Virus record (IMG/VR): IMGVR_UViG_3300027406_000071
Origin: an uncultured virus (IMG/VR IMGVR_UViG_3300027406_000071)
Taxonomy: Duplodnaviria; Heunggongvirae; Uroviricota; Caudoviricetes
Strand: one strand, 5' to 3'
Length of the DNA: 20,000 nucleotides
Shown here: piece by piece, positions 2,969 to 19,992 of the stretch
How positions within the stretch are numbered: position 1 is the stretch's first letter
Layout: every line of letters begins with the position of its first letter
Notes under the pieces: model-generated
What the model saw: only the letters and a program-made list of their open reading frames with translations
Database searches by the model: none
Told to the model about the DNA's origin: nothing
Made by a program: the position numbers and the translations under genes

Positions 2969-3572
2969 TTTGATGTTTCTTCAAATCTTTAAGAACATCT
3001 TTTTTAACTATTTCTAAATACTTTGCTCGTTTTTTATCACTTGCAAATGGTACTGACCAAAATTGTTTTGTCTTTAACCATCTTGAAATATTCCATCCAA
3101 ACACAAATGTAAATACACCCATCACTAAACGTAATTTAACCGAATTCAAATAAAGTGTTTTTACTGGCAATGAAGGTGCTCCATGTGTGATGTATGTTCT
3201 TACCTTTTTATCACTCAAAAATGGTTTTGGATATGCGTATGGTCCAATCACTGGGACAAACTTGTATGCAAAACCTGGAGTAAATACTTCGTCAAAGAAT
3301 ATCTCTGTTCTTGGTGTTAATCTAAACCACCAAACTGGAGATACGAAATAGATTCTGTCTGCCCAAGTTACTAACTCTTGATATTTTTTAATAAGATCTG
3401 TTCTTGGTCTAGAGAAATCATCTCTATATAAATCAATAACTTCTACCTCATTTAGGTAATCACTATCTAATAGAGTTTTCTGAATTGTCTTAAAAATACC
3501 ATTGTAACAGAAAGATTCCTGATCTGGATGACCTACTACAATCAAGTTCTGCATTCTTTCTAGCTTTTTCAT
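2940..3572 (-). CDS. NAD(P)H-dependent (quinone) oxidoreductase, flavodoxin-like fold
   Basis: VGHPDQESF, WADRIYFVSPVWWF and FFDEVFTPGFAY motifs of the Flavodoxin_2 family. Confidence 0.88.
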   Translation of the reverse strand: MKKLERMQNLIVVGHPDQESFCYNGIFKTIQKTLLDSDYLNEVEVIDLYRDDFSRPRTDLIKKYQELVTWADRIYFVSPVWWFRLTPRTEIFFDEVFTPGFAYKFVPVIGPYAYPKPFLSDKKVRTYITHGAPSLPVKTLYLNSVKLRLVMGVFTFVFGWNISRWLKTKQFWSVPFASDKKRAKYLEIVKKDVLKDLKKHQIETISNKSI

Positions 3573-3748
3573 AAAAATTGTTTAAATTGTGTTTCTTCTT
3601 TTTTTCTAGATTCTTCTAGTTTTTTTACATGATATTCTCTGGCATATTGTTCCATGATCTTGCTCATTGTTGTGTAATGAGAAAATGCATCACTATCTAT
3701 ATTTTTATTTGGCCATTCATTTTTATCTAACCATTCTTTTGCTGTCAT
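3569..3748 (-). CDS. Hypothetical 59-aa protein (MTAKEWLDKNEWP...)
   Basis: Hand-translated; fills the gap exactly, with ATGA overlaps at both ends. Confidence 0.75.
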   Translation of the reverse strand: MTAKEWLDKNEWPNKNIDSDAFSHYTTMSKIMEQYAREYHVKKLEESRKKEETQFKQFL

Positions 3749-4074
3749 TTTCTTTTCTTTTGAAATAATGGTATAGTCAATGTAACTGTGGCTCCTCCCA
3801 TCATAGTAGCTAACACATCTCTGCGCTCTACCGTACCACCAGTTCTACTATCATACAATTCTTTTAATATACCTGCTGAAATTGATGCTAACATTCCCGT
3901 TATTTGAGCTCTTGTTTTATTATTATGTTTTTTATATGACCAATAATAACCTACTGTGCTAGCTGCTGCGCCTGCTATAAAATGTATTTGTTTGTCTTTC
4001 TCTTGTAAAATAAAATTCTGCCCAACCATGTTTGTTGTTAACATAAATAGAATTATTAAAAAGAAATGTCTCAT
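3745..4074 (-). CDS. Membrane protein, YfiM-like
   Basis: Signal-like N-terminus; DKQIHF, KELYD and DVLAT motifs with hydrophobic helices. Confidence 0.65.
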   Translation of the reverse strand: MRHFFLIILFMLTTNMVGQNFILQEKDKQIHFIAGAAASTVGYYWSYKKHNNKTRAQITGMLASISAGILKELYDSRTGGTVERRDVLATMMGGATVTLTIPLFQKKRK

Positions 4075-4310
4075 CGGTTTGCTCTTTGGTTTTTTGATTT
4101 AAATCTGATACCATCATTATTTTTGGCATGCTTTGTCTTTCTGCCTTTAACTCGCTCTCTCCACATTTTAAATGAGGATTCTTTCATGTGCTTCCTCATT
4201 AACTTCCTAACATCATTCTCTTTAAGTCCGAATTGGAATTCAATGGCCTCAAATGGAGTTCTATCCTCCCAAGCCATTTCTATAATTCTATCAATTTGTT
4301 CTTCTGTCAT
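4071..4310 (-). CDS. TIGR03643 / DUF2805 family protein
   Basis: Recognisable IEMAWEDRTPFEAIEFQFGLKE...SSFKMWRERV signature. Confidence 0.88.
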   Translation of the reverse strand: MTEEQIDRIIEMAWEDRTPFEAIEFQFGLKENDVRKLMRKHMKESSFKMWRERVKGRKTKHAKNNDGIRFKSKNQRANR

Positions 4311-4390
4311 TTTGATCCTAGTATCATTAGAGTAAAAAACCCAATCACTGTAAGAATATTAATTATTGTATAAATTCTTTCTTCTTTCAT
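4307..4390 (-). CDS. 27-aa single-helix microprotein (MKEERIYTIINILTVIGFFTLMILGSK)
   Basis: Hand-translated; ATGA overlaps with both neighbours. Confidence 0.6.
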   Translation of the reverse strand: MKEERIYTIINILTVIGFFTLMILGSK

Positions 4391-4641
4391 TTCTCTGTAT
4401 AATTGTTCGTTAGTAACGTCAATAGAATATTCACCTCTGTAGGATTAGTAAATCTAATCTCCGGAGTTTCAAATGCCTCAACATACCATCCATCTTCTTC
4501 AACCTCATCACTTGCTGGTGAGATTAAGCTGAAGTTACCTACGTCGTATGTGTAGTAGTGGAAGTCATTTGGTGCTCCACTATTCTCAGCTGTCTCGTCA
4601 TTGCGAGTGAAGTCTAATTCTATTAGTTGCTTTTCTGTCAT
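4387..4641 (-). CDS. Hypothetical protein, cassette D of the repeat-delimited array
   Basis: Start codon lies inside junction repeat copy 1. Confidence 0.8.
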   Translation of the reverse strand: MTEKQLIELDFTRNDETAENSGAPNDFHYYTYDVGNFSLISPASDEVEEDGWYVEAFETPEIRFTNPTEVNILLTLLTNNYTEK

Positions 4642-4653
4642 CTCTCTTTGGTG

Positions 4654-4812
4654 TTAAAGACAATGGTCATTTAATGGTATATCATTCTCATTCTTATACC
4701 CAAGTCCAAGTGTAATATCCTCTTTAGTGGTAAGCGTTGTACCATCTTTATAAGTGATAGTTACTACTCCTTCTTTGACTTCAATCATTTGAACATTGTC
4801 TAATGGTTTCAT
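4654..4812 (-). CDS. Hypothetical 52-aa protein, cassette C (MKPLDNVQMIEVKEG...DHCL)
   Basis: Hand-translated; ATG in repeat copy 2, stop TAA inside the core of repeat copy 1. Confidence 0.75.
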   Translation of the reverse strand: MKPLDNVQMIEVKEGVVTITYKDGTTLTTKEDITLGLGYKNENDIPLNDHCL

Positions 4813-5093
4813 CTCTCTTTGGTGTTAAAGGTTTCTAATATATGTAGAGCAAAGTCTGCCATCATATCATAGTGATAATGAGCATAGGTTTGTCCTTCAC
4901 TACGATTAGACTGAACAAAGTCATCAGTCATAGATAGAATCTTGTCGTGTGTATCAGTACCATATTCTGCTAATACTTTATCCCACTCCTTTTTTAGCAC
5001 CTCTTTAGGTGTTGTCTTAACGATGTGTTCCATCTCTTCACCAAAGTTGTCAAAATCTGCTTCTGGATTGTAATTTGGATTTACTTCACTCAT
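4809..5093 (-). CDS. Hypothetical protein, cassette B, ending ETFNTKER
   Basis: ATG in repeat copy 3; C-terminus and TGA encoded by repeat copy 2. Confidence 0.8.
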   Translation of the reverse strand: MSEVNPNYNPEADFDNFGEEMEHIVKTTPKEVLKKEWDKVLAEYGTDTHDKILSMTDDFVQSNRSEGQTYAHYHYDMMADFALHILETFNTKER

Positions 5094-5239
5094 CTCTCTT
5101 TGGTGTTAAAGGTTTCTTCCTTGTAGTTCTTAATACATTCCTCCTCCATTAGGTCAACCCATTTTGAGTACGAGATTTCTTCTCTATTAAGTTGCCATTC
5201 CAACTCTCTTACAAATCCTTGCTTTAAGTATTTACCCAT
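5090..5239 (-). CDS. Hypothetical 49-aa protein, cassette A (MGKYLKQGF...ETFNTKER)
   Basis: Hand-translated; ATG in the arm of repeat copy 4; C-terminus encoded by repeat copy 3. Confidence 0.78.
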   Translation of the reverse strand: MGKYLKQGFVRELEWQLNREEISYSKWVDLMEEECIKNYKEETFNTKER

Positions 5240-5250
5240 TGTCTTTGGTG

Positions 5251-5496
5251 TTAAACATACATTGGAAAATCTACACCATGTCGGTGTACAAATGAGTTGT
5301 GTACCTCTTCATCTAATTCAATTCTTACATCAACATCACTGTCCTTAAACATTCCAGTTAAAGCAGTAATATCAAAGTCAGTATATTCTTGATCTTCAGT
5401 TTTATCTTCTAGCGTTCTTAATGCAGTTTGATAAACTTGTAATGCTTTTACAATAATATCCCTTTGTGGCTGTGGTAATTTAACTGTGTTTCTCAT
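5251..5496 (-). CDS. Hypothetical protein (MRNTVKLPQPQRD...), 81 aa
   Basis: Start moved from 5631 to 5496 to avoid overlap; stop TAA lies in repeat copy 4. Confidence 0.7.
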   Translation of the reverse strand: MRNTVKLPQPQRDIIVKALQVYQTALRTLEDKTEDQEYTDFDITALTGMFKDSDVDVRIELDEEVHNSFVHRHGVDFPMYV

Positions 5497-5497
5497 T

Positions 5498-5773
5498 CTA
5501 ATCAACTTTTTCTTTTTTACGGCCTTTCCAATCTCTATCCATTCTATTCTTTCTAGCATTTTTAAGAGCTTCGCGTTCTTTATTAACTGGAAATCTACTA
5601 AAGTTTCCCATACCATCCATATCCACATCATCGCTCATCGATCCATGTCTATCATAATAGTTTGGATAGTTTTCTTCTCTTTGTTTTTTAGCACCATAGA
5701 AGATGTTCCATATTGTAAAATAGATGTAAACTGAAAATATCAGTCCACCCATAATAAAAAATCCTAGATTCAT
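5498..5773 (-). CDS. Hypothetical protein with N-terminal transmembrane helix (MNLGFFIMGG...)
   Basis: Start moved to the ATGA overlap at 5773. Confidence 0.7.
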   Translation of the reverse strand: MNLGFFIMGGLIFSVYIYFTIWNIFYGAKKQREENYPNYYDRHGSMSDDVDMDGMGNFSRFPVNKEREALKNARKNRMDRDWKGRKKEKVD

Positions 5774-5958
5774 GAGTTTCTTCTTTGTCTGATCGCTATC
5801 GCAAAAAGGAGGATAGTTCCTGGCCAGTGTGCCGAATACTGAGCTTCTTCTGTGTAACCTAATACTCCATAAGTTACGGAATATAGAAGGCATGCAAATG
5901 CTAAAATTACTGGGTACCAGTTATTAAAGAATTTTTTGAATTTGTTAATCTTGTTCAT
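5770..5958 (-). CDS. Small two-helix membrane protein (MNKINKFKKFF...)
   Basis: Start moved to 5958; two hydrophobic segments. Confidence 0.65.
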   Translation of the reverse strand: MNKINKFKKFFNNWYPVILAFACLLYSVTYGVLGYTEEAQYSAHWPGTILLFAIAIRQRRNS

Positions 5959-5974
5959 AATATTTAATTTATAG

Positions 5975-6826
5975 TTATTCATATGCTTTAGGGTTAGGTA
6001 ATCCACTGTAATAATCCCAATCTTTTAAATCATCTCTGTGGATAGGTACATTCCATTTAGGATCATACCAAAATCTACGGTTCTTAGAATCTATACGAGT
6101 ATCCATCATTTTGTTTCCATAACACAACATAAATTTTTCTTGAATTGCGTTTTCGCCAAATGGATTATCCCAATCTTTGATGCTTCCACCGCCCTTTGCG
6201 TATGCCAACATTGGAATATCTGTACATAATTCTAGTATTTTTGGGTACTTTGCAATTTGTTGTGCTGCCGGAAGAAATGGATCAACATCACCTGCTCTAA
6301 AAATAATTTCAGCTCTTAGATAATTACCAATACCATTAAACCATTTTTGATCCATAAGAACCTCATATAATGGTTTACGAAATGTTTTTTTAGTTAGATT
6401 TGTCATGATATTCAAAAAGAATTCACGTGGTTCTGTTGTTGGATCTGGACCTCTTCCTTCATTCCAACTCAAACCTTGTGTCCATTTACCAAAACGTCTA
6501 ACATCTACAAATGACAATGTTGTTCCATCTTTTCTATAAAATTTAAGATGTGCGTGTTTGTCTTCTTGTCCAGTGTTAGTAGTTCTAAAATGACCACTCA
6601 TACCCATAGTAATACGTATAGGAATAGTTGCTTCACTATCATCATCTTTGATAGTTAATATGATCTCTTTACCTTTACTTTCTGAAGTTAGTGTAAAATA
6701 TTTAAATGGGATATCTAATTCTGCCCCTTTGTGTTGAGGATTCTTTTTTACATTTGTGTAAATCATTCCACTTGATGCTTGATTTACATAGTCTGATGTT
6801 AATTTAAGTTCGGCTAGTTCTGGCAT
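5975..6826 (-). CDS. Fpg/Nei family DNA glycosylase/AP lyase, NEIL1-like
   Basis: N-terminal catalytic MPE; GMSG; FVDVRRFG; H2TH motif LMDQKWFNGIGNYLRAEI; no C-terminal four-Cys zinc finger. Confidence 0.92.
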   Translation of the reverse strand: MPELAELKLTSDYVNQASSGMIYTNVKKNPQHKGAELDIPFKYFTLTSESKGKEIILTIKDDDSEATIPIRITMGMSGHFRTTNTGQEDKHAHLKFYRKDGTTLSFVDVRRFGKWTQGLSWNEGRGPDPTTEPREFFLNIMTNLTKKTFRKPLYEVLMDQKWFNGIGNYLRAEIIFRAGDVDPFLPAAQQIAKYPKILELCTDIPMLAYAKGGGSIKDWDNPFGENAIQEKFMLCYGNKMMDTRIDSKNRRFWYDPKWNVPIHRDDLKDWDYYSGLPNPKAYE

Positions 6827-6828
6827 AA

Positions 6829-7053
6829 TTAAAATGGTAAGTCTTGGTTCAACAATTTTTCTGTCTTGATTGCATCAATATCAACTTCCTTTACGTTTAA
6901 TGATGCGAACGGTGTAATATGCAATTTATGTACATCCCACTGTTGATTTGGGTGCAACGCATTCTGGTTTTTGGCGATCAGTTCTGCTTTAGAAAAAGCA
7001 TGTTTATCATTGTCACCTTCAATGTAAACTTCATAAGTTACTGTATATCTCAT
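6829..7053 (-). CDS. Hypothetical protein
   Basis: 74-aa ORF directly downstream of a class I promoter motif. Confidence 0.75.
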   Translation of the reverse strand: MRYTVTYEVYIEGDNDKHAFSKAELIAKNQNALHPNQQWDVHKLHITPFASLNVKEVDIDAIKTEKLLNQDLPF

Positions 7054-7070
7054 AGTTCTGCTTTAATATT

Positions 7071-7124
7071 ATACTACTAATATACAAAAAGTTTATGACA
7101 TAAAAAAATCTGGGTGAATTATTT
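7071..7124 (-). promoter_or_regulatory. Class I promoter-like repeat GATTTTTTTATGTCA-N10-GTATATTAGT
   Basis: Same two boxes with a fixed 10-nt spacer at 11821, 12258 and 19923; always intergenic and upstream of a minus-strand gene. Confidence 0.8.
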
Positions 7125-7129
7125 TACTA

Positions 7130-7702
7130 CTAATGGTGAATTAATATATGATCATCGAAATATTGATCAAACATTTTGTTCCATTCTTTAGTTTCCATTA
7201 ATGTAATATGTAGATTTTTACCATCTGGAAATGCATTACTTGATAATCCCTTTGGAATGGTGAATATAACTACACCGTCATCTGCTAAATAAGATTTCAT
7301 TTCAGATAATAATTCCGGTAACTCTTCTAATGGCACATGTTCTAAAACTTCTGTACACATTATAATATCGAATGTTCCTGTTGGTTTTTTACAATATTCT
7401 GGGTGGGCAGGATCATATCTATAAAATCCTCTTAATCTTGAACCAAAGTGTTCACTAGCAGTTTTACGTTCTTTAACTCCTGGAATTGGCACTTTTTTTG
7501 TCCAATGTACTCCAGTTCCAGATCCAAAATCTAAGATAGTACCGCTACCTCTTTTATCTAATTCATATTCTAATTCGCCATATATCTTTTGAATTCCGCC
7601 CCCATCAAAAACTGTTTTTTCTTTTAACGTGACCATTTTACCATTTCTTAAAAATGGTTTACCTTCAAAAATGTCTTTGTAATATTTTAGATATTTACTC
7701 AT
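7130..7702 (-). CDS. Class I SAM-dependent methyltransferase
   Basis: Motif I ILDFGSGTG and FDIIMCTEVLEHVP. Confidence 0.88.
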   Translation of the reverse strand: MSKYLKYYKDIFEGKPFLRNGKMVTLKEKTVFDGGGIQKIYGELEYELDKRGSGTILDFGSGTGVHWTKKVPIPGVKERKTASEHFGSRLRGFYRYDPAHPEYCKKPTGTFDIIMCTEVLEHVPLEELPELLSEMKSYLADDGVVIFTIPKGLSSNAFPDGKNLHITLMETKEWNKMFDQYFDDHILIHH

Positions 7703-11426: not shown

Positions 11427-11795
11427 TTAATTTGATTGATTATTTTTTTTGGTATTACGATAATTAACAACTGCTTTTGCAAGGCGATCCATGCGTTCTT
11501 TAGGATCTTGAATCATCACACGTGCTGTGGTTTCGTAAATTTTACCATTGTAAGATGATTTGTAGTAACCTTTGCGCTGTGGATTTAATTGATAGATGGT
11601 TTCATGAAATTTACCACCATAATAAGACCTGGCAGCAGATGATAGTAACTTAGTTTTGTAACTTCTGCGAATATAACCACTTTCATAAGAAAGATAGTCA
11701 CAATTTGTAATTGGGTCATGATAACATATTGTACCATTGTCAGCTTGTCGTTGTGAAGTTACTTCAACACATTTAAGAGATTGTAATTTGTTCAT
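11427..11795 (-). CDS. Hypothetical protein
   Basis: 122-aa ORF downstream of a class I promoter motif. Confidence 0.75.
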   Translation of the reverse strand: MNKLQSLKCVEVTSQRQADNGTICYHDPITNCDYLSYESGYIRRSYKTKLLSSAARSYYGGKFHETIYQLNPQRKGYYKSSYNGKIYETTARVMIQDPKERMDRLAKAVVNYRNTKKNNQSN

Positions 11796-11820
11796 TTTTA
11801 TTTGTTTTGATTAATACTCT

Positions 11821-11855
11821 ACTAATATACCAAAAAATATTGACATAAAAAAATC
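11821..11855 (-). promoter_or_regulatory. Class I promoter-like repeat
   Basis: ACTAATATAC-N10-TGACATAAAAAAATC on the + strand. Confidence 0.8.
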
Positions 11856-12217
11856 TATGCTAATATTTTTTCACTTTTTTTAGCCTTAATGTGTTTACAA
11901 TCTCCTCTAAAGAAATTCATTGCTGGACAATTACATCCCCAAACACCGTTTGTTTCAGTAACATCATAGAATTTTCCAGGCTTAGAAGACTCTACTTTCC
12001 ATGATCTGTTTTCAGTTTTAGTTTTAGTGATCACTGACACAGGTTTTGGTTTTTCTATTTTAGTACTTTTGTCAAACTTAATCTGATCTCTAGTAGTTCC
12101 TTTAGGAACCGGGTGCCAACCTGGACATACATAAGTAGCATCAACTGTATTTACTATAGCAAATACGTCGCCATAACAATTATCGTAAGGGAATGTAAAA
12201 GTAGAAGTGTTTGACAT
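11855..12217 (-). CDS. SWIM zinc-finger protein
   Basis: Y-x-V...WGCNCP...CKH (CxC...CxH) motif at the C-terminus. Confidence 0.8.
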   Translation of the reverse strand: MSNTSTFTFPYDNCYGDVFAIVNTVDATYVCPGWHPVPKGTTRDQIKFDKSTKIEKPKPVSVITKTKTENRSWKVESSKPGKFYDVTETNGVWGCNCPAMNFFRGDCKHIKAKKSEKILA

Positions 12218-12229
12218 AATTTGTGTTTG

Positions 12230-12304
12230 GTGAGGTATTAACCTCCATTAGTATACTACTAATATACCACAAATAAATGACATAAAAAAATCTGGGTGAT
12301 TTAT
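12230..12304 (-). promoter_or_regulatory. Class I promoter-like repeat plus leader hairpin GAGGT-TAAT-ACCTC
   Basis: 63 bp (12230-12292) match 19895-19957 with 3 mismatches; the distal part also matches 7096-7124. Confidence 0.82.
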
Positions 12305-19879: not shown

Positions 19880-19894
19880 TTTTTATTGGTTTTA

Positions 19895-19957
19895 GTGAGG
19901 TAGTAACCTCCATTAGTATACTACTAATATACCACAAATATTTGACATAAAAAAATC
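19895..19957 (-). promoter_or_regulatory. Class I promoter-like repeat plus leader hairpin
   Basis: Near-identical to 12230-12292. Confidence 0.82.
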
Positions 19958-19992
19958 CGGAGCTAATTATTTTCAAATTAGTTTCCGGATTT
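19949..19992 (-). terminator. Intrinsic terminator of the upstream unit, overlapping the class I promoter
   Basis: Minus strand AAATCCGGAAACTAATT...AATTAGCTCCGGATTT followed by a T run. Confidence 0.7.

Follow-up and report, generated by a model that had tools for sequence, protein, structure and literature searches.

Small orphan open reading frames (ORFs; ORFans) in the hyperplastic regions of T4-type phages are preceded by motifs called promoter-early stem-loops (PeSLs), intergenic cassettes that combine a sigma-70-like promoter with a terminator stem-loop (PMC2839356, PMC4122927). Breakpoints of insertions, deletions and replacements fall within the motif, recombination between adjacent motifs gives mini-circles, and the authors propose homologous recombination, identify no dedicated recombinase and compare the system with integrons (PMC2839356, PMC4122927). 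Here we describe a junction unit of about 25 nucleotides (nt) in a 20,000-nt stretch of DNA, hereafter the window, from an uncultured Caudoviricetes virus (IMG/VR IMGVR_UViG_3300027406_000071). The unit joins a row of small cassette genes, and PeSL-mediated shuffling in T4-type phages is the closest known system. In our judgment the unit is probably, though not securely, a portable intercistronic stop/start adaptor of small genes that also provides short homology for recombination.

Like a PeSL, the unit lies in a hyperplastic region of a T4-like phage and holds breakpoints of rearrangement. It differs in having neither promoter nor stem-loop, in being placed within coding sequence or where it ends, in carrying stop codons in two frames and a start codon within about 25 nt, and in occurring also in phages that are not T4-like.

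A second precedent comes from the debate on phage mosaicism, which sets homologous linkers at module borders against random illegitimate joins filtered by selection. The modular theory of Susskind and Botstein, and the study of HK620 by Clark et al. in 2001, are said to hold that short boundary sequences target the homologous exchange of modules. Such boundary or linker sequences in lambdoid phages and mycobacteriophages are few, lineage-specific and debated. The present case differs in that one exact 20-mer recurs at 121 or more loci of several phage types and that the step in homology can be quantified. An exact sequence of 20-25 nt marking the edges of homology at more than 100 junctions makes the linker model testable in an abundant seawater system.

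A repeated unit joins single small genes

The 14-mer TTTAACACCAAAGA occurs in four exact copies on the minus strand of the window (4645-4658, 4816-4829, 5097-5110 and 5242-5255), spaced by 171, 281 and 145 nt, and an ATG stands right after each of them. With up to two mismatches allowed there are six matches in the window against 0.57 expected, a number reached in none of 200 shuffles. Each interval holds one ORF, of 52, 94 and 49 amino acids (aa) respectively, with a further ORF of 84 aa after the last copy and one of 126 aa before the first. The minus strand carries all genes around the array in tight packing, and their order on that strand is the 126-aa ORF (ending MYV-TAA), the 49-aa, 94-aa, 52-aa (ending HCL-TAA) and 84-aa genes, a 27-aa ORF and a DUF2805 gene. 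Both the 49-aa and the 94-aa gene end in ETFNTKER, with a TGA that overlaps the next ATG. An earlier note on the stretch had described the four copies, their spacings, the single ORF per interval, the TAA and TGA stops, the two ETFNTKER tails and the ATG of the next gene, and all of these were found exactly as described. It had also reported 28 bp identical in two copies; this is true of the window (4809-4836 equals 5090-5117) but not of the underlying virus record, where 26 of the 28 positions agree.

Comparison of copies gives the consensus (A)AACC-TTTAACACCAAAGAGAGATGA, about 25 nt, which carries stops for two reading frames as well as the ATG of the following gene. The virome search for the motif that the earlier note had proposed located the exact 20-mer TTTAACACCAAAGAGAGATG at 121 loci or more in IMG/VR; counts of units, flanks and neighbours given here were taken among the matches listed. 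Carriers include T4-like jumbo phages, phages of about 100 kb and small phages bearing ERF or exonuclease genes, and the hosts of these phage types are probably marine Bacteroidota. The 3' part, AAAGAGAGATG, is the better conserved half: of its 202 occurrences in 389 kb of loci, 147 have the exact 5' part in front. Varied 5' halves mostly keep a TAA with ACC or a near variant behind it. Neither Rfam (for the unit) nor a literature search for the motif letters AACACCAAAGAGAG, anywhere within a word, gave a match.

Copy number varies among genomes. A 212-kb relative (G001) has four copies, G002-G004 have one each, and a 64-kb fragment (G005) has 16, with about 17 small genes in a row bearing the unit. 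The ligase and terminase of the window are common to G001 and G005. G002-G004 do not have these in common with it and carry Sak4 (found in G002), DnaB-type helicase, primase or RNR genes. Short unit loci are mostly of the small-phage type, in which Terminase_3, Bac_DnaA_C and a BT4734-like primase are common. Of 77 loci, 30 have an exonuclease (DUF3799/PDDEXK or YqaJ) near the unit and six have ERF. HNH_3 homing-type enzymes are found among the cassettes of five loci (L008, L028, L015, L023 and L068) and could supply double-strand breaks that stimulate exchange. The HNH_3 genes at 525-1022 of L008 and 2449-3003 of L028 include NUMOD4 as well, and each begins directly at the unit.

The earlier note had suspected a foreign origin of the cassettes from hand counts of G+C (53/120 and 36/120), which are right. 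Over its whole length the array has 36.4% G+C against 31.5% for the window, the 97th percentile among windows of the same size. Other motif-bearing loci have a median of 39%, and the exonuclease-bearing type 40%, so the raised G+C of the array, shifted towards theirs, fits import from such phages.

Homology stops at the unit

Junction pairs from different loci were compared over 50 nt on each side at 80% ungapped identity. Homology was confined to the left side in 104 pairs and to the right side in 69, and extended over both sides in 11. Two or more different partners were found for 24 of 25 multi-member left-flank clusters and for 24 of 26 right-flank clusters. Position by position, agreement follows a step function with edges at unit positions -3 and +21. 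In left-only pairs agreement stays at 0.8-1.0 through position 0 and is at background from +22; right-only pairs show the reverse. A variant at unit position 6 goes with the left flank and a G/A difference at position 17 with neither flank, which indicates that exchanges occur inside the unit and not at a single point.

Relatives show the outcome at one site. We compared the window with 73 contigs retrieved by its Fpg-like gene, and the stretch from Fpg to a conserved block is highly variable across them. Seven sources have the 126-aa gene that forms the left anchor. Behind this anchor stand the 49-94-52-84-27 genes in the window, 49-52-94-27 in G001, 53-161 in L268, the 84-aa gene and then another gene in L272, and the 49-aa gene followed by the contig end in L270. 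Two contigs, L265 and L266, have DUF2805 straight after the left anchor, an empty site that reads ...TATAACACCAA-ATGACAGAA and keeps a shortened unit. Relative to the window, G001 has the 52- and 94-aa genes swapped, lacks the 84-aa gene and a pair of 109- and 59-aa genes, and carries a 131-aa region elsewhere. The shuffling at the junction that the earlier note had predicted is borne out by this reordering, gain, loss and replacement in relatives, whose breakpoints lie within the repeat.

Small genes that recur in relatives (the 49-, 94-, 52-, 84- and 27-aa genes and the neighbouring 109- and 59-aa genes) are 87-100% identical in nucleotides, with 99.6% for the 94-aa, 97.5% for the 52-aa, 98.8% for the 27-aa and 100% for the 59-aa gene. 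Core genes compared with relatives reach 75-82% (Fpg) and 72-78% (ligase and CCA-adding enzyme). The identity of the cassettes thus lies above that of the core genes, which shows that cassettes were exchanged recently between diverged phages.

Public sequencing runs bear on whether these arrangements are real. The stretch is present in 20 public marine runs of 18 studies. The share of its words present is 0.92-0.97 in 14 DNA runs (12 studies) and 0.69-0.90 in six runs of RNA libraries, where presence was read from contigs and is not proof of transcription. Contigs of two RNA libraries leave the window sequence at 4638/4639 and 5111, both within junction copies, and also at 5080, ten bases outside copy 2. 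A joint from 4834 to 5090 in run X5 has just 28 letters on one side and may reflect the repeat alone. Among 78 contigs, 25 end within 200 nt of a unit against 3.1 expected, an excess that fits assembly graphs that branch because co-occurring phages are alike on one side only.

Could the shuffling be an artefact of chimeric metagenome assembly at the repeat? The comparators are all assemblies, and contigs often break at the unit. However, the orders in the window and in G001 come from long contigs (57 kb and 212 kb) of different samples, and the stretch is almost whole in the 14 DNA runs. Arrangements also recur in independent contigs, L265 being the same as L266 and L269 the same as L270 up to the end of the latter's contig. 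A repeat of 25-28 nt, moreover, is usually shorter than final assembly k-mers. We regard an artefact as extremely unlikely.

An improbable site-specific recombinase

An integron consists of IntI, attI and ordered, same-direction, promoterless cassettes, each with an attC, a folding site of 57-141 bp at the 3' side of the ORF. The core site of a tyrosine recombinase consists of a spacer of 6-8 bp between two inverted binding arms, each of about 9-13 bp. From the quasi-palindromic look of the junction, the earlier note had proposed a mechanism of this integron-like kind and suggested looking for a tyrosine recombinase that co-occurs with the motif. The array does share features with an integron: cassettes are promoterless, of single ORFs and in the same direction, with one junction site each, and their content varies at a fixed platform that can be an empty site.

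The machinery itself was not seen. PF00589 matched none of five virus records (G000, G001, G002, G003 and G005; about 510 kb, 22-87% complete), one of them the 212-kb relative at 76% completeness, whereas the control matched in 14 of 14 genomes. Among 236 ORFs of at least 130 aa in 77 unit loci, no integrase, resolvase, transposase or recombinase family was found. As to the quasi-palindrome, the CTTT/AAAG arms around AACACC do exist, but they are 4 bp each, the next positions are unpaired and no stable fold is predicted. No attC-type folding site or long inverted arms were detected in the unit of about 25 nt, whose folds are not significant.

A dedicated site-specific recombinase encoded elsewhere could still excise and insert cassettes at the unit, and the finding of the same cassettes in unrelated phage types, along with the integron-like arrangement and the empty site, would suit it. 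We nevertheless consider it very improbable. Beyond the missing PF00589, integrase, resolvase and transposase genes, the 4-bp arms and the lack of a hairpin, the site is fixed to the ATG. The behaviour of positions 6 and 17 shows that crossovers do not fall at a single point, and the event that made the empty site has one end outside any unit. The tyrosine-recombinase mechanism is not upheld, and no co-occurring recombinase was found in the records and loci searched. The unit differs from an integron site in being short, unstructured and locked to a start codon.

The unit and translation

An ATG lies exactly 3 nt past the 14-mer in 190 of 203 unique instances. At 197 places we determined the upstream ORF: 31 use the TAA frame, 71 the TGA frame, one further ORF is in the TGA frame without having the TGA, two read through, and 92 places have no long ORF. 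In all, 102 upstream ORFs end in the unit and two run through it. The TAA is in frame with the next ATG, whereas the TGA overlaps it as ATGA, and upstream ORFs that use the TGA frame acquire the FNTKER tail. At several of the places without a long ORF the unit is preceded by hairpins or other non-coding repeats.

Ordinary ATGA stop/start coupling needs a four-base overlap and a nearby ribosome site. The unit is like it in that the upstream TGA overlaps the ATG, with an alternative TAA 12 nt upstream in the frame of the ATG. Coupling of this kind leaves unexplained at least 20 invariant bases common to several phage types. The conservation is visible in the spelling of the tail. The pattern TTYAAYACNAARGARAGRTGA, which covers all 128 synonymous spellings of FNTKER-stop, has 139 unique matches, of which 123 are a single version, so the constraint acts on nucleotides and not on the FNTKER peptide.

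ORFs led by the unit are small (median 53 aa), and the 155 of at least 25 aa fall into 78 blastp families. The largest family, MKTPMQELIEQ...YYNETFNTKER, accounts for 27 of 152 downstream ORFs; its members are often in tandem and end natively in ...[YF][YF]xETFNTKER. Such a family raises the possibility that the unit is a mere end-to-start joint between tandem paralogs with no role of its own. Yet the five ORFs of the window have nothing in common except an 8-aa tail, itself encoded by the unit, so they are not paralogs from tandem duplication, the alternative that the earlier note had named. The many families downstream of the unit also speak against it, as do the 92 of 197 places without a long upstream ORF, several of them behind terminator-like hairpins or promoter-like elements, and the absence of synonymous variation. 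As a full explanation of the window the joint is refuted, and overall we think it quite unlikely; it is kept as an account of descent, the family being a plausible origin of the unit.

Another possibility is that a phage or host RNA polymerase uses the unit as its promoter, in which case the leader would be very short. About 22 nt are conserved exactly, as in promoters of single-subunit RNA polymerases, and the unit sometimes stands directly behind terminator-like hairpins. On the other hand, it is locked to the ATG to the single base and lies inside coding sequence in about half of cases. The phage also has a separate promoter-like repeat of its own (D1, described below), and the array has no excess of sigma-70-type promoters: the search of the array for promoters or terminators returned no excess, with 15 promoters found against 18.6 expected. 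This possibility seems highly unlikely to us.

Alternatively, the unit may be an operator in mRNA or DNA for a phage regulator or endoribonuclease, in the manner of T4 RegA/RegB, with recombination a by-product. Exact conservation of 20-25 nt at the nucleotide level over the start codon, beyond the needs of a start signal, would agree with this, and so would the presence of the unit on a subset of small genes only, clustered in arrays. Against an operator, the unit is common to phage types among which no shared large terminase or ligase was detected; a common regulator would need to travel along, and none was found among the 236 neighbouring ORFs. The RNA folds of the four junctions are not significant (z = -1.54, 0.04, -1.02 and 0.39), and the Rfam null applies here too. 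The RegA family PF01818 had no match in the five records, a search in which the controls matched nothing either. We consider an operator rather unlikely.

A proposed mechanism and the evidence against it

Our best reading is that the mechanism is driven by homology, as with PeSLs, without a dedicated recombinase, and that its outcome resembles an integron array. The putative everyday job of the unit would be to stop and restart translation on polycistronic mRNA in hosts without Shine-Dalgarno pairing. Co-infecting phages would have these identical 25 letters at the starts of hundreds of genes, so the letters are usable as short homology, and general recombination machinery could use them as such: the T4-type system in this phage, and exonuclease with ERF or Sak4 annealases in smaller phages. 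Each exchange would carry a whole gene, bringing a stop for its new upstream neighbour and its own start, and a gene recombined in the TGA frame (frame b) would gain the ...TFNTKER tail. In the window, such events may have placed the 49-, 94-, 52-, 84- and 27-aa genes between the 126-aa gene and DUF2805. The unit suggests a plug-and-play expression adaptor for hosts without Shine-Dalgarno pairing. It can also be used to find small genes, probably early ones, of a pool to which no function is assigned.

Several points weigh against a stop/start adaptor that doubles as short homology. All relatives are metagenome assemblies, and some joins are possibly chimeric. The empty site in L265 and L266 has a microhomology of 4-5 nt at one end and is not a two-unit exchange. 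Variation is found also at junctions that have no unit (the indel of the 109/59-aa pair, the translocated 131-aa region and the c13, c20 and c33 variants), so shuffling in this region does not depend on the unit. Some units stand directly behind terminator-like hairpins, where read-through or a promoter function would be needed. With respect to translation, the unit has no significant complementarity to the 16S rRNA of one Flavobacteriales metagenome-assembled genome (MAG): the longest run of Watson-Crick or G-U pairs is 8 nt, equalled by 77% of shuffled motifs, and the duplex energy with the 3' tail of that rRNA is unremarkable. A host among the Bacteroidota is likely, on the basis of distant relatives and MAG binning only. 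Finally, exactness over at least 20 nt, the 5' half included, exceeds the needs of a simple ribosome site. The unit may be kept exact by a bound protein, by spread through recombination, or by an edge that perfect copies give cassettes in spreading.

A bolder version holds that the unit is the currency of a cassette-exchange network among unrelated marine Bacteroidota phages, with a unit-recognising factor that promotes capture, for which HNH/NUMOD4-type nucleases or annealases are candidates. We regard this as rather improbable. If true, it would be an integron analogue without an integrase and a real case of Botstein-type linker-mediated modular evolution.

The phage and its likely host

The virus record (G000; 56,743 bases in IMG/VR, 25% complete by CheckV) encodes a gp44-type clamp loader, a T4-type large terminase, a tail sheath, endonuclease VII, RNase H and a sigma factor. 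The window encodes a ligase, a CCA-adding enzyme, an Fpg-like glycosylase, thioredoxins and a PD-(D/E)XK exonuclease (1156-1923). From this gene content the phage is T4-like, and it is probably a jumbo phage. The leaders of its other genes are rich in A/T and lack a Shine-Dalgarno sequence.

By terminase, the nearest cultured relatives are the Tenacibaculum phages PTm1 and PTm5 (34% identity), Sphingomonas phage PAU and a Flavobacterium phage. Five prokaryotic assemblies matched, namely two MAGs of Flavobacteriales or Flavobacteriaceae, one 'Methanobacteriota' MAG and two single-cell assemblies, and these look like binned or co-sorted viral contigs. Against cultured phages, blastn with window positions 3500-7200 and tblastn with the commonest cassette protein gave no match, and hence no cultured carrier of the unit was found. 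In G001 the T4-type large terminase (C1:160080-161907) is matched in two pieces, with two TAG codons inside the longer piece; possible causes are an intron, an intein, a frameshift and an assembly error. A spacer after the 16S gene of one MAG (...AACACCTCCTTTATAGAGAGATGA) resembles the unit, and we set it aside as a coincidence, the pattern being present in one of 301 genomes of the order.

Junctions and genes of the array

All features here are on the minus strand. Junction copy 1 (5237..5255) is the variant TTTAACACCAAAGA-CA-ATG, which G001 also has; the 126-aa ORF stops at its TAA, and the 49-aa gene begins at its ATG. Copy 2 (5090..5117) is the full 28-nt form AGAAACCTTTAACACCAAAGAGAGATGA, encoding the tail of the 49-aa gene, with an ATGA that starts the 94-aa gene. 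Copy 3 (4809..4836), also of the full 28-nt form, joins the 94-aa gene, whose tail it encodes, to the 52-aa gene, whose start it supplies. In copy 4, CTTTAACACCAAAGAGAGATGA (4638..4659), the TAA ends the 52-aa gene and the ATG starts the 84-aa gene. At 4387..4398 lies a degenerate fifth junction, ACAGAGAAATGA, in which just the 3' part of the unit is left; the 84-aa gene stops there and the 27-aa ORF begins, the latter being preceded by a full unit in G001. No further copy with one mismatch or fewer was found elsewhere in the 56,743-base record.

The 126-aa ORF (5251..5631, start uncertain) is the left anchor of the cassette site; its relatives ('c19') have 81-103 aa, and nucleotide identity is 94-97% in five of them. 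Three different genes follow the 49-aa cassette gene (5090..5239) in the window, G001 and L128. The 94-aa cassette gene (4809..5093) has six distinct right-hand neighbours (window, L029, L049, L058, L070 and L101), and the 52-aa cassette gene (4654..4812) has three (window, L029 and L126). The 84-aa cassette gene (4387..4641), missing from G001, adjoins the anchor gene in L272. The 27-aa ORF (4307..4390), a predicted membrane peptide MKEERIYTIINILTVIGFFTLMILGSK, is the last motif-led unit before the DUF2805 gene (4071..4310), the right anchor, which stands directly after the left anchor in L265 and L266. Pfam and PHROGs assigned no family to the window cassettes, the 49-, 94- and 52-aa genes included, or to 13 common cassettes. 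In Atlas, the 84-aa protein matched viral hypothetical clusters only, and the 94-aa protein had no match.

Other observations

The window and the virus record differ by single bases at six positions (5063, 5094, 5116, 10363, 10829 and 15004). The first three lie in the array, and both alleles are present in public runs; at 5063 and 5094 the letter of the record is the commoner one.

Within the DUF2805 gene, contig depth at 4162-4288 is several-fold above that of the flanks (203 against about 20 in run X1), and at 4239-4298 many contigs pass over into sequence of other kinds. This segment is common to many other seawater organisms or phages.

The unit often leads very short ORFs, at many loci (for example L047, L058, L064, L067, L088 and L097). 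Among these are a recurrent MSRCTPHRK of 8-9 codons and a family of peptides of 19-21 aa (MKDIIALCNRDKED..., MSITDLCLRDLDDN...). They may be leader peptides, or starts of no ordinary gene. At L062, L063, L066, L095, L100 and L121, and also at L061, L067 and L117, the 5' half AACCTTTAACACCAA precedes CGAAAAATAGGCGCA, and then come some 12 nt, ATAGGCGCA and a full unit. The double TAGGCGCA box inside this duplicated unit is perhaps a promoter/operator cassette moved by the homology of the unit.

Lastly, the window contains the separate, PeSL-like repeat D1 on the minus strand at 7039-7113, 11784-11858, 12221-12295 and 19886-19960, and its family is found also in L131 (4570-4690, 5960-6060, 13790-13900 and 14120-14230). 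D1 is intergenic and 60-90 nt long, with a hairpin, a T-run and then ATGTCA...N...TGGTATATTAGTAG, and 29 columns are invariant among eight copies of the two phages. It looks like a terminator-plus-promoter cassette, the PeSL-type element of this phage group.

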